Positions 4,113-8,366 are shown, counted from the first letter of the stretch. The stretch: DNA of 18,948 nucleotides from Clostridia bacterium (GCA_024404275.1 JAKSQG010000018.1:1-18948), one strand, 5' to 3'. Made by a program: numbers and translations. Notes: generated from the letters alone by a model not told the origin.

Positions 4113-4193
4113 ATGATTCGCAGGGTACGCCGTTTTGTTCTGGGCACGCTGACACTTGTCTGTTTTTTGCTTTTGTCGCAGGCAGCTTTTGCC
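4113..4193 (+). other. Sec signal peptide of the surface protein
   Basis: MIRRVRRFVLGTLTLVCFLLLSQAAFA|FT has a basic n-region, a hydrophobic core and an AFA cleavage motif. Confidence 0.7.
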
Positions 4194-7100
4194 TTTACAC
4201 GGGAGGGCGGCTTTGACTCCACCTCGTGGATGCGCTATCTGCCGGACAGCATGCAGGTCTCCGAGATCAATATTCCCGGCACCCATGATACCGTGTCCAC
4301 CTTTATGCGCGCCATCTATGCCGATTTCGGTCAGTGTCAGGAATGGACGCTGCCCGAGCAGATGGACAACGGTCTCCGTTTCTTTGATATCCGTCTGGAA
4401 TCGGACGAAGATAATCACAAGGACTGGTTTCAGCGTCTGCTGCACCATCACGGCACGCATAACGGCTTCAATTGCTACAAGGAAAGCTCCAACAGCAATC
4501 TGATCCTCTTTTCGGACATACTGGGTTATGCAAAAAGCTTTTTGAAGGCCCATCCGACCGAGACGGTGATCTTCATGGTCGTGGCGGACCACAATTACAA
4601 TGATGTTCAGCCTGACCTGCTCCATATGCTGGACTACTGGCATTATGACCGTCCGGTCAGCGAGGAAGACCCCTATGGATACATCAAATGCTACAAGGTC
4701 GGGGAGCGTGTTCCCACCATGGGCGAGGCGCGCGGAAACCTGATCATCATTCTGGATGAAAACAACCATGATTACAGTCTCACCACCTATGAAATGGAGT
4801 ACAAATTAAAGTTTTTCGATATCAAAACGGCGCTTGTTCTCCAGGTGTTTGATACTGCGAACCAAAACGAATACCGCATCGATTATCTGGGACGGCGCGG
4901 TGCAAAATTCATCGAGGAGCCCTATAAAAACGTAATCTGGCATGAGGGCAACCCGTTCGTCAAGCACACCGGTACCAACATGAACTCCGTCTATGACTTC
5001 GGCTCGGCTTTTGACGGCTACAATCCGAAGGTATCGGCTTATGAGTTCAAGCGGTACTGGAATGCGTGGGGCGGCAATAACCACATAGAGAGCGGAAACC
5101 GCTATGGCTGGATCACCATGGACTTTCCCGACCGGGAAATGATCTACCACATTTGTCTGTCCAACTATGACTACGGCATGCTGCAGGAATTTGAGGGAAA
5201 GATCTACTTTGAACAAGGTGTTTCCCATTCCGACAGCGCTGTCTATTCGCTGCATGGCCGCGTGATCGATACCGGGGAGGAATTTGAGTTTTGTTCCGGT
5301 TACCTCCGGGACCTGCCTGTGATGACCGACGCCTCCGGCCGCTCCTACTATTCTTTGCAGAAGGATTCTGTCAACCGCTCGGACGCCTGGGAACACACCG
5401 CCTACAGCAATATCCTCTACTACATGGAGGTCTCGCACGCAAACGACGAGGTCGTGGCGGTGATCTCGCGTGAGAGGGAAGAGAAGCTGCCCATCTACAA
5501 CCGGATCAGTGAAAAACTGACCCTGACCGTAGAAGTGAAAAAACGGGGGGAAAACGGCTGCAGCAGGGATTATGAGCTGCGCTTTCTCAAAGATGATCCG
5601 GGCAAACGCCCCGGCAGCTTTGCCGATTTCCTCAAGGCGGTCACACCCGGGGGAATGACCTATCTTGTCACGGATTCCACCGGCAAAAGCGAAAGGCGTA
5701 CGGTGGACCTCGATCCCCGCTCTCCCGAACTTACTCTCAAGGAAGGGTGGTCGTTTGACCCCTCCGCCGATGTGTGGTATCTGACCCTGCATGACCTGCC
5801 GCATTATGATGAATACGGCGAAGAATACATCATTCATGATTTCAGCTGGTCCATTGCCGATTCGTCCTATGTTTGCGCCAGCGGCGAGGTCAGCGGTACC
5901 AATCAGGTCTACCTGTCAGCCCAGTGGATGCATCCTTACATTGAGCAGAGGAATGTGACCATTCGTGTGGACTGGTATGACAACAACAACCCGCAGCGAA
6001 AAAAACTGATCGAACGCATGCTGGAGTCGGAAGATGACCCGGATGGTCATTGGTACGTCAAGTACTCCTTTGTCCCCGTTGGCGGCAAGAAAGTGATCCG
6101 TGATACCTGGCCTTCATACTACAAAACGTTCGGGGAGAACATGAGTACCTTCCTGTTCAGTGTCCCATAGAAGTATTATGACAAGCAGCGGGATGTTGTA
6201 CGAGAATATACCGACCTGAAGGTCGATTTTGCCATTCCCCGGCTGTTTGAGGACCCGCAGTACGTTTGCATCCAGACCGGTGAGCTTTCCTATGATGTCT
6301 GTCTGGCAGCCAACATGGATTTCATTATCACCTGGGTGGGGGATGAAGACCGGGTGGATGAGCGGCCCAACAGCATCGTTGTCAAAATGGATCGATGGGG
6401 CGGCGAAACGCTGGTTGAAAAAGGCACAGGCAGCCAGAACACATGGGAGGTCCGCCATCTTCTGCCCATTTACCGGCCGGACTATGAGGCCGATAAAGTG
6501 CCGGACCTCATTACAGCGGATGTTGCCGGCTACACCGCCAGCGACGGCCATGCTGTGATCCGGCCTTACGGCGACATCAACATGTATTATGTTTACCTGA
6601 CGCTGACGGCCAAAACCGAAATGGATGTGTCCGGTCGGGTGACGTATGTGAACGGCGACCTGACTTCGACGGTCACGGCACCGCCGGAGGTGACCGTTTA
6701 CCGCCTCCGCGGCGACGAGGAGGGAATTCCCGCGGCGCAGGAGCCGGAAAAGGTGGAGCTGAAAAACAGCCGCATCGTCTGGGAGGACGGTTACACCGCG
6801 TATCGCTTTGAAAAGATCGACCCCGATCAGCCCGGCGACTTCCCCATCTATGATGCGGAAAACCACCGTTATGTCTACTGCATCGAGGCAGGCGACCTGA
6901 CGGGCTATATCGATAAAAAGGTCGAAGGCTTCAACATCACCTATACCCGCACGGTCAGCATCAGCGGACGCGTGGCGTGGAAGGACGAGAAGAATCCCTC
7001 CAACGCCCAGCCGATGATCCAGCTGCTGCGCGATGGGGAACCTGTGGGCAGCCCTGTTTCCGCCGAAAACTTCAATTACAGTTTCAACGATCTTCCCATT

Positions 7101-8366
7101 GCCGGGGAGGACGGCGCCTGCTACCGCTACAGCGTGTCCGCCACGCTGGACGGCTATGAGTGCTTCATTCAGTATCTGGAAGTGACCCGTGACGCCAACG
7201 GCTGCTTCACCGCCGACGCGGTCATCCTTCCCAAGGAATATCCGGTCGATGTGACCATTCCCCTGAAGCTGCAGCTGGAGGGCGTTGACCCGGCTTCCGA
7301 AACGGAAGTGTTCCAGTTCTCTCTGGTGTCCACCTCGCATGAGGGCTTCGGGCGGTATGTTGTGACGCTGGGACAGGGCAGCCATTACGAGGGCTCTGTC
7401 ACCGTGAAAAACATCCCCGAACTGGACACGCCTTATACCTTCCTGCTCAAACAGGATAATCTTGACCGCCATCGCAATTGGGTCTGTGACGATAAGCAGC
7501 AGGTGATCACGGTCACGCTGCGTTATCTCAACGGTCCCGCGCCCATCGCGGAAATCGATTGGGGCGGCGGCGATGCCGTCACGTTCACCAACGTTTTCCA
7601 CCCGGACGGGGCGGTGGTCGCGATTCCCGCCATCAAACAGATCGACAACCGGCTGAGCGGTATCGAGACGCCGGAAGCGCAAACCTTCCGCTTCAGGCTG
7701 AGCGCGGTGCATCCGGACGGAACCCGCGATCTGGTCAGCTATGCTTCCATTGACCGGGAAGGTCTCCTTCATTTCCCGCGCATCGCGCTGACGGAGGCAG
7801 GTCAATACACCTTTGCCGTCACCGAGCTGGGCGAATCCCCCGACGGCTGGAGCTATGATTCCGCGGATCATCGCATCGATGTTACGGTGACACGGGAAGG
7901 GGACCAGCTGAAGGCCATCGTGGGGGATGCTCCCGTGATCACCAACGTTTTCCTGACCCCGGTCGAGGATGTTCCGGTTTCCGTGGTGTGGCAGAACAAC
8001 AGCAAAAAGCCCTTGCCTGTGCCAAGCCGGGTTGGCATCACGCTTCTTGCCGATGAGCAGGAGTACCGGCGGGCCGAAGCGTCAGAGGACGGCGGATGGG
8101 TTTGCTGCTTTGAGAGCGTTCCTTTGTATCGTACAGTGACAAGGGATGCTTCCGGCATCATTCCTTACACACTGACAGCACAGGAGGTATAGGGGTTCAC
8201 ACAGCAGGTCACCGGTGATATCCGGCAGGGCTTTGTTGTCACCTATACCGCCCGTCGTCCTGTTCCCGATACAGGCGACCGTACAGCCCCTGCACTGCTG
8301 ACGGCGCTGCTGGGGGTGTCCGTCACGGCGCTCGTGCTGCTGCATCGACGTCGCCGCTCCGTGTGA
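4113..8366 (+). CDS. Cell-wall-anchored surface protein of about 1417 aa: signal peptide, PI-PLC X-type catalytic domain, multiple CnaB/pilin-isopeptide-type stalk domains, and a VPDTG sorting signal. Contains in-frame TAGs at 6168-6170 and 8190-8192.
   Basis: ORFs 4113..6170 and 6315..8192 are in the same frame, and 6171-6314 has no stop in that frame. The frame also continues from 8193 to the TGA at 8364-8366. PI-PLC motifs are WMRYLPD..INIPGTHDT, FFDIRLE and LLHHHG. CnaB-like repeats include IRVDWYDNNNPQRKK, IITWVGDEDRVDERPNSIVVKM, ISGRVAWKDEKNPSNAQPMIQLL and VSVVWQNNSKKPLPVPSRVGITLL. The tail is PVPDTGD, then a hydrophobic stretch, then HRRRRSV. Confidence 0.85.
4206..5150 (+). other. Phosphatidylinositol-specific phospholipase C (PI-PLC X) catalytic domain
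   Basis: Collinear with Bacillus/Listeria-type PI-PLC: SWMRYLPD...IPGTHDT (catalytic His), FFDIR (Arg), LHHHG (second His), HPTETVIFMV, GEARGNLIII, YGWITMDFP. Confidence 0.8.
6168..6170 (+). other. In-frame TAG codon inside a CnaB-type domain (candidate sense codon)
   Basis: Context is ...MSTFLFSVP-TAG-KYYDKQRDVVREYTDLKV... This matches the CnaB pattern F..LPkYd....i.Yt..E running straight across the TAG. Confidence 0.8.
8190..8192 (+). other. In-frame TAG codon inside the last CnaB-type domain (candidate sense codon)
   Basis: Context is ...IIPYTLTAQEV-TAG-GFTQQVTGDIRQGFVVTYT... This matches the CnaB C-terminal pattern YtvtE..v.gYt....g...itNt. The sorting signal lies downstream of this TAG. 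Confidence 0.85.
8262..8363 (+). other. Sortase cell-wall sorting signal (LPXTG-like VPDTG, TM segment, basic tail)
   Basis: VPDTG (8262-8276), then DRTAPALLTALLGVSVTALVLL (hydrophobic), then HRRRRSV, then the TGA. Confidence 0.8.

Follow-up and report, generated by a model that had tools for sequence, protein, structure and literature searches.

In-frame TAG codons in a predicted surface-protein gene and its neighbours in a Clostridia bacterium: UAG as a probable rare sense codon, most likely for glutamate

A contig of 18,948 nt from a Clostridia bacterium (GCA_024404275.1, JAKSQG010000018.1:1-18948; the whole stretch is called the window below) contains two adjacent open reading frames (ORFs), 4113..6170 and 6315..8192, followed by an orphan coding tail that ends at 8366. 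The question raised by this locus is whether these pieces are separate genes, the remains of one gene, or one gene in which two TAG codons are translated. A sequence-only reading had favoured the last of these and had explained it by read-through of TAG. Our analysis indicates that 4113..8366 is very probably one gene, and that in this lineage TAG is probably not a terminator but a rare sense codon, most likely for Glu. The product is predicted to be a secreted, sortase-anchored PI-PLC-type surface enzyme on a Cna_B/FctA stalk.

One frame across two TAG codons

On the plus strand, which carries all features of this gene given below, 4113..8366 translates into 1417 codons followed by TGA. The only internal in-frame stops are the TAGs at 6168..6170 (codon 686, TAG 1) and 8190..8192 (codon 1360, TAG 2), and no in-frame TAA, TGA or frameshift occurs across the 4.25-kb frame. 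The list of ORFs confirmed that the two ORFs share one frame, and the 144 nt between them (6171..6314) were open in that frame as proposed, reading KYYDKQRDVVREYTDLKV. After TAG 2 the frame encodes GFTQQVTGDIRQGFVVTYTARRPVPDTGDRTAPALLTALLGVSVTALVLLHRRRRSV and then TGA, which is exactly the string given in the sequence-only reading. A frame of this length broken by TAG alone, as is also the case in four other genes of the window, is beyond chance.

The start signals were in agreement with a single coding sequence. A Shine-Dalgarno sequence, GGGAGG (4098..4103), lies 9 nt 5' of the ATG at 4113, and further upstream of the gene there is a promoter-like site (TTGTCT, 17 nt, TG-TATAAT; 4040..4068) with 10/12 matches, a consensus match only. 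No Shine-Dalgarno sequence was found before the ATG at 6315 when the sequence was read, and the inter-ORF stretch is taken as coding on this ground and on its open frame. The tail after TAG 2 was said to have no start of its own, and indeed no in-frame ATG, GTG or TTG precedes its VPDTG motif; an AGGAGG at 8181-8186 consists of sense codons and is followed by no start codon.

The best relatives found in a search of 5.8 billion proteins were only 29% identical to the joint translation. One of them, P0002 (1352 aa), is uninterrupted and comprises a signal peptide, PI-PLC, a Cna_B stalk, VPPTG, a transmembrane helix and a basic tail, its C-terminal end reading GFTVTYMLKYVPPTGDKNRPGALLSLMLLTLAAGAFLMKGKRRPGF. 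Another, P0001 (1239 aa, cut by a contig end), covers 86% of the query. In the column of TAG 1, P0001 has D and P0002 has E and both are continuous, this stretch being weakly aligned; in the column of TAG 2, P0002 has D and is again continuous. Homologues ending at the TAGs would count against one protein; P0001 and P0002 pass TAG 1 and P0002 passes TAG 2.

When the joint translation was compared with Pfam, Cna_B and FctA scored above their cut-offs and PI-PLC-X below. The last Cna_B domain (aa 1288-1378; 7974..8246) spans TAG 2 and covers profile positions 2-86 of 87 with 29.7 bits; cut at TAG 2, the same domain covers positions 2-55 with 21.7 bits, under the cut-off of 22.3. A V-x-V-x-W-x-D motif opens each stalk domain, and TAG 1 is located about 66 residues after one such motif and about 55 before the next. 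TAG 1 therefore falls inside a domain, about 66 residues into a unit of about 124 residues bounded by these motifs. The sequence-only reading had described this unit as a Cna_B-type repeat, which could not be demonstrated: Pfam gave no match, a profile built from the Cna_B-like units of this protein missed the domain as well, and hhalign matched the opening V-x-V-x-W-x-D motif alone, with a probability of 4%. Continuity at TAG 1 thus rests on the homologues, the frame and strain conservation, not on a Cna_B match.

The two ORF products are on public record as MCQ2453379.1 ('hypothetical protein', 685 aa) and MCQ2453380.1 ('Cna B-type domain-containing protein', 625 aa), and both have 90%-cluster mates with identical lengths from other samples. 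Strain contigs from four other samples (ENA ERZ27247129; Logan ERR6929691, SRR21150928 and SRR28408152) matched the window at 97.3-98.2% identity along as much as 4228 nt, with zero indels. The TAG at codon 686 was kept in 4/4 of these contigs and the TAG at codon 1360 in the 2/2 that cover it.

Nei-Gojobori counts between strains gave a ratio of non-synonymous to synonymous change (pN/pS) of 0.13-0.21 for the gene. For the tail (codons 1361-1417) the values were 0.11 and 0.25, and in the other two frames they were at least 1, which indicates selection on the tail at the protein level when it is read in frame with the ORF before it. In the 144 nt between the ORFs, the strains differed by synonymous changes only, very few and too few for a test. 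The view that a single polypeptide is made is therefore supported by the layout of P0002, the Cna_B domain lying over TAG 2, the conservation between strains and the pN/pS of the tail.

TAG inside and at the ends of other genes

If the window is read with TAG as sense, seven TAGs are found in five genes without any in-frame TAA or TGA, other pairs of ORFs fuse too, and all twelve genes end in TAA or TGA. TAG then accounts for 7 of 5748 codons. Besides the two TAGs of the surface-protein gene, two lie in the gene of a sugar ABC transporter ATPase (10763-12241, plus strand), at codon 201 (ISHKLR-X-VMEICD; 11363..11365) and codon 455 (LSNEAQ-X-IIRVC; 12125..12127). One is codon 30 (13435..13437) of the Gfo/Idh/MocA oxidoreductase gene gfoA (13348-14385, plus strand), inside the PF01408 match of GfoA, and one is codon 154 (14859..14861) of the gene of a xylose-isomerase-like TIM barrel, AP2b (14400-15212, plus strand), inside its PF01261 match. 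The last is codon 818 (326..328) of a GGDEF-EAL-PAS gene on the minus strand (230-2779), where 31 codons more lead to a TAA at 230-232. Of these five TAGs in neighbouring genes, four are within single Pfam domain matches, and the fifth is followed by 31 codons of conserved C-terminal sequence.

Relatives of these genes were taken from a sister metagenome-assembled genome (MAG) with 88.5-98.2% nucleotide identity per gene (GCA_045599485.1, JAZRWA010000093.1; loci L001/L041), from a sheep-rumen MAG with about 75% protein identity (L002), and from 30 further syntenic loci obtained in a metagenome scan. Each TAG-bearing neighbour gene has an uninterrupted orthologue of equal length. Between the window and L001, the pN/pS downstream of the TAGs in these genes was 0.06-0.15 without indels (0.15 over 315 codons in GfoA, 0.06 in AP2b), and TAG-free neighbours gave 0.03-0.21; with the surface-protein gene included, the values downstream of every TAG were 0.06-0.25. 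Since the constraint downstream of TAG equals that of TAG-free neighbours, these genes are not pseudogenes. The Prokaryotic Genome Annotation Pipeline (PGAP; accessions MCQ2453377 to MCQ2453386) recorded the surface protein as two products, cut the GGDEF/EAL protein short and listed no protein for the ABC ATPase, GfoA or AP2b.

The gene ends were analyzed in about 230 kb of sequence from loci of the clade. Of 130 closed ORFs that scored well for codon usage in 215 kb, 86 stop at TGA, 44 at TAA and none at TAG, and 14 more gene ends from L040, a contig from a further strain (Logan SRR27361835), likewise included no TAG. The stops of orthologues alternate between TAA and TGA, never TAG. As a trinucleotide, TAG reaches 63% of the frequency of TAA in this DNA, so that next to 44 TAA stops some 28 TAG stops would be expected. 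TAGs inside genes were confined to the sub-lineage of the window, L001 and L040, plus one case in locus L027 described below.

These results bear on the earlier proposal of TAG read-through. The TAGs are evidently translated in this lineage, and this is not read-through confined to one gene: TAG behaves like any other sense codon, though a rare one, in the window and the sister genomes.

The residue at TAG and competing explanations

The positions of the TAGs in conserved proteins point to Glu as the most likely residue. Codon 201 of the ABC ATPase is GAG or GAA in 20/20 relatives, with E also in the LptB-like structure 4WBS, and codon 455 is GAG or GAA in 18/18. In the GGDEF gene, codon 818 is TAG in the window and GAG in L001, the TAA end being identical, and codon 225 is TAG in L001 and GAG in the window. 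Codon 154 of AP2b is TAG in the window, in L001/L041 and in L040, and in more distant relatives GAT, AAT, GAC, GAC and TCG (D, N, D, D, S). A further site was detected in L040 (7076-9508, minus strand), in a GH94 chitobiose/cellobiose phosphorylase gene (E = 0 to 1V7V) that was split at its TAG by the gene caller into 435 + 351 aa. This TAG falls on the E of the Y-x-x-E-T-G-D motif of structures 1V7V, 3QDE and 8HO7. A Codetta-style log-likelihood over nine sites, not including the GH94 site, gave E +6.0, D -0.9, W -3.6 and K -4.1 nats, and the GH94 site adds to the assignment of E.

A random nonsense mutation (C-to-T transition) or a Gln code is expected to pair TAG mostly with CAG. The window contains 162 CAG codons, and no TAG site matches CAG or CAA in the relatives. 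In four of the five recent differences between the window and L001, TAG stands opposite a Glu codon (GAG in three, GAA in one), a change that needs a transversion; this pairing is as expected if changes between GAG and TAG are synonymous.

Several observations weigh against a single gene with TAG as a Glu codon. Codon 30 of GfoA is Trp in the sister genome, and in the relatives it is TGG in four, CGG in two, and TGC, CTG and ACC in one each (Trp, Arg, Cys, Leu, Thr). In L027 (JAEEGL014570949.1) codon 145 of the sugar-binding protein gene is TAG, and this codon is AAG (Lys) without variation in 24 other loci; the L027 codon may be a nonsense mutation, an assembly error in a contig of 1.4 kb, or a different meaning of TAG in that lineage. 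ARAGORN detected no tRNA gene in the window or in 40 loci (roughly 250 kb). Both TAGs of the surface-protein gene are at non-conserved positions, and near TAG 1 the alignment at 29% identity is weak. Neither Pfam nor hhalign gave a recognisable fold around TAG 1, and a structure model of the P0001 segment homologous to this region, based on an alignment of four rows, was unusable, with a pLDDT of 39. Moreover, the gene ends of orthologues from different loci are not fully independent.

The alternative that survives best, itself unlikely, is partial amber suppression, with release factor 1 (RF1) present and a suppressor tRNA that reads TAG incompletely. The surface-protein gene would then give a released form of 685 aa, an unanchored form of 1359 aa and an anchored form of 1417 aa, and the other TAG-bearing genes would be down-tuned. 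The rarity of TAG in the window fits this explanation, and termination at either TAG of the surface-protein gene (codon 686 or 1360) would still yield a secreted protein whose catalytic domain is intact. However, two TAGs at invariant Glu positions in one ABC ATPase would multiply the loss of product, and the lack of TAG terminators in about 130-144 gene ends of the clade is unexpected if RF1 is active at TAG. The constraint past the TAGs is also as strong as in TAG-free genes.

Slightly less likely again is that TAG is sense but encodes another residue: pyrrolysine (Pyl), Trp, Lys or the Gln of phage code 15. Against it stand the TAGs that fall on highly conserved Glu in enzymes unrelated to each other (two positions in the ABC ATPase, one in GH94), two TAG/GAG switches between near-identical genomes, D, E or N at the remaining sites, and the absence of CAG or CAA from all sites. 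Trp at codon 30 of GfoA in four relatives and the TAG at an invariant Lys position in L027 would favour it, as does the fact that the readings of TAG known from prokaryotes are Pyl and Gln. The TAG-bearing genes are neither methylamine methyltransferase genes nor phage genes. They encode an ABC ATPase, oxidoreductases, a TIM-barrel isomerase, a GGDEF/EAL protein, GH94 and the surface protein, which speaks against Pyl. A phage origin was rejected, the genes being cellular and syntenic with more than 30 bacterial loci, and the residues aligned with TAG (E, D, N, W and R) do not include the Q of phage code 15.

It is very improbable that the gene is a decaying pseudogene or, as annotated publicly, two genes with untranslated DNA. 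PGAP did call two proteins here and left the ABC ATPase, GfoA and AP2b without a record. Against this, the frames are interrupted by TAG only, never by TAA, TGA or an indel, the TAGs are kept across samples, and purifying selection acts on either side of them and in the tail. Taken as a gene of its own, the second ORF would also lack a Shine-Dalgarno sequence and a signal peptide, and the last Cna_B domain would be left incomplete. A sequencing or assembly artefact turning GAG into TAG is more improbable still: G-to-T is a known type of oxidative-damage error, but assemblies made independently, from different samples and with different assemblers (NCBI MAGs, ENA, Logan), agree on these TAGs, and no in-frame changes of GAA to TAA or GGA to TGA were seen. 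RNA editing was rejected, as A-to-I would give Trp and U-to-G editing is not known to occur.

The surface protein, a possible mechanism and known systems

The N-terminus of the surface protein, MIRRVRRFVLGTLTLVCFLLLSQAAFA (4113..4193), was judged by eye to be a probable signal peptide: its n-region is basic, its core is hydrophobic and it has an AxA site (AFA cleavage-type motif). The N-termini of P0001 and P0002 are equivalent. Within it and just beyond, a patch at 4122-4205 differs at 24/84 nt between the window and strains L036/L037, a divergence not present in L038, and the promoter just 5' of it and the rest of the gene are 98-99% identical between strains. This patch looks like a small recombination or hypervariable tract.

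The signal peptide is followed by a bacterial PI-PLC-type catalytic domain (aa 37-340; 4221..5132), assigned by its IPGTHD, FDIR and HHG motifs and by phmmer against the PDB. The structures matched were those from Bacillus cereus/thuringiensis (1PTD and 3PTD), Listeria (1AOD) and Staphylococcus aureus (3V16), at E about 1e-10 (2.5e-10 for 3PTD/1PTD); some matches cover aa 37-340, and the three motifs align. Pfam PI-PLC-X reached 14.2 bits, under its cut-off of 23.1, and the homologues carry PF00388. About 270 aa without a recognised fold separate this domain from the stalk. The C-terminal half of the protein matches the B region of the S. aureus collagen adhesin Cna (PDB 1D2P), and Pfam Cna_B (PF05738) gave a total of 71.1 bits in two stretches (E 1.1e-19 for the whole protein), above the curated cut-off. 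The stalk includes a Cna_B domain at aa 951-1016 (6963..7160) and a FctA/Spy0128-like isopeptide-type domain at aa 1175-1270 (7635..7922; PF12892, 41.6 bits), followed by the last Cna_B domain described above.

The cell-wall sorting signal (8262..8363) lies within the last 57 residues and consists of VPDTG (8262-8276), 19 hydrophobic residues and HRRRRSV. It had been called a textbook sorting signal with an LPXTG-like motif. The helix and the basic tail agree with this, and TIGR01167 (LPXTG_anchor, NCBIfam) scored 18.3 bits on the tail alone against a cut-off of 15.9; the motif itself is VPDTG and not canonical LPXTG. On a longer C-terminal segment TIGR01167 gave 15.7 bits, just under the cut-off, and Pfam Gram_pos_anchor gave 12.7 bits, under its cut-off of 20. 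The arrangement with a signal peptide at one end and a sorting signal at the other, also claimed before, recurs in P0002. No sortase gene was found in the 18.9-kb contig or in the other loci analysed.

Comparison of the window with L001 by blastn and synteny indicated that the promoter and the surface-protein gene form a cassette of 4.36 kb (4028..8382, plus strand). The cassette is absent from L001, where the AP_endonuc_2 gene and lacI are instead separated by 58 unrelated bp (L001 7201-7258). Neither repeats at its flanks nor genes of mobile elements were noticed for the cassette, and the GC content of its 5' half (0.50-0.54) is below that of the flanks (about 0.57).

The adjacent block 8440-16257 is operon-like and encodes LacI, a ribose-type sugar-binding protein, the ABC ATPase, a permease, two Gfo/Idh/MocA proteins and a sugar-phosphate isomerase/epimerase-like TIM barrel. 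It is syntenic in more than 20 rumen and gut metagenome loci, the binding protein being unusually conserved (82-99% identity), and is probably an inositol- or rare-sugar-type catabolic locus. L040 has three extra genes (TetR, a FAD-binding protein and a FMN-binding protein) between the HIRAN and S41 genes. Long antisense ORFs in the window, such as 98-2149(+), 12265-14415(-) and 16205-18034(+) with 684, 726 and 610 codons, are rich in G, V, A, L and Q and junk-like; they are by-products of the GC content of about 57% and the low content of TAA and TAG, not genes.

The lineage, uncultured Clostridia of gut and rumen (about 57% GC, not visibly reduced), may use UAG for Glu, with termination at UAA and UGA and codon capture at an early stage; judging from the sequences we regard this as the more plausible account, with moderate confidence. 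A tRNA with anticodon CUA would be needed, most simply a duplicate of tRNA-Glu(CUC) with C36 changed to A, charged by a glutamyl-tRNA synthetase (GluRS) permissive at position 36. The GluRS of many Firmicutes is non-discriminating and should tolerate changes at this position. RF1 would be lost or disabled, leaving release factor 2 (RF2) to read TAA and TGA. The distribution of TAG in the clade fits codon capture, in which TAG would first be purged from gene ends across the wider clade and would then re-enter the genes of one sub-lineage, mainly via changes of GAG to TAG.

All known bacterial code changes reassign UGA according to the Codetta screen published in eLife in 2021 (PMC8629427), and UGA only is listed for bacteria in a 2026 Microbial Genomics paper (PMC13462651). 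KACI, a 2026 k-mer screen of 2.7 million assemblies, reported no bacterial TAG reassignment and treated TAA/TAG signals as contamination (bioRxiv 10.64898/2026.04.02.715157). Code 4 (UGA to Trp) is found in Mycoplasmatales, several endosymbionts and Eggerthellaceae MAGs, and code 25 (UGA to Gly) in Absconditabacteria/Gracilibacteria (PMC8629427, PMC13462651, bioRxiv 10.64898/2026.04.02.715157). As in these codes, a stop would here have become an ordinary sense codon, found in frame at conserved positions and dropped as terminator. Codes 4 and 25 differ in that they concern UGA and the loss of RF2, while here UAG is concerned, RF1 is implied, and the genome has about 57% GC and is not visibly reduced.

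Phage code 15 reads TAG as Gln in crAss-like, Lak and other gut phages, chiefly in late genes (PMC9523058, PMC10879173). It shares with the present case TAG as sense in gut-associated prokaryotic DNA, presumably via a tRNA with a CUA anticodon; in contrast, the genes here are chromosomal and cellular (LacI, ABC transporter, oxidoreductases, GGDEF/EAL) and are aligned with Glu, never Gln. Pyl decoding, including the proposed archaeal code in which all TAG is Pyl, resembles our case in that UAG is translated and TAG depleted as terminator. It differs in depending on pylTSBCD and methylamine methyltransferases, whereas TAG here falls on conserved Glu of unrelated enzymes. The same amino acid is proposed for UAG in peritrich ciliates and Blastocrithidia, for which nuclear codes with UAR to Glu via tRNA-Glu variants are reported (PMC12153298); these, however, are eukaryotes with eRF1 in which UAA is reassigned too. 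That a bacterium can dispense with UAG as a terminator and use it as sense is shown by engineered RF1-free Escherichia coli (C321.deltaA and related strains; PMC6207430). Unlike the natural lineage here, C321.deltaA is synthetic, and its UAG codons were removed by design before UAG was given to non-standard amino acids.

As to the protein, Cna_B and FctA domains and a C-terminal sorting signal are shared with S. aureus Cna and Streptococcus pyogenes Spy0128/FctA, and a predicted signal peptide and the IPGTHD, FDIR and HG motifs with the secreted PI-PLC of B. cereus (1PTD) and Listeria PlcA (1AOD). Unlike in these proteins, the PI-PLC is here fused to a long stalk and a wall anchor with VPDTG, and the gene contains two TAGs. 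As a predicted wall-anchored PI-PLC carried by a Cna_B stalk, the surface protein, though new, belongs to known families and is not remarkable. The interest lies in the cause of the TAGs, a probable lineage-wide UAG-to-Glu code, rather than in this protein.

In the literature searched, UAG as sense was reported in phages (Gln), Pyl users and eukaryotes only. No report of a bacterial UAG-to-Glu code was found, which given an incomplete search is absence of evidence only. If true, the present case would be the first UAG reassignment to a canonical amino acid in a bacterial chromosome, adding a new code to the bacterial repertoire and a natural counterpart of the engineered RF1-free E. coli. It would also provide a natural tRNA/GluRS pair for UAG decoding and show codon capture under way in a genome rich in GC and without visible reduction. 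Standard annotation mis-handles this lineage, and gene catalogues, pangenomes and completeness estimates are therefore systematically wrong for these bacteria of gut and rumen.

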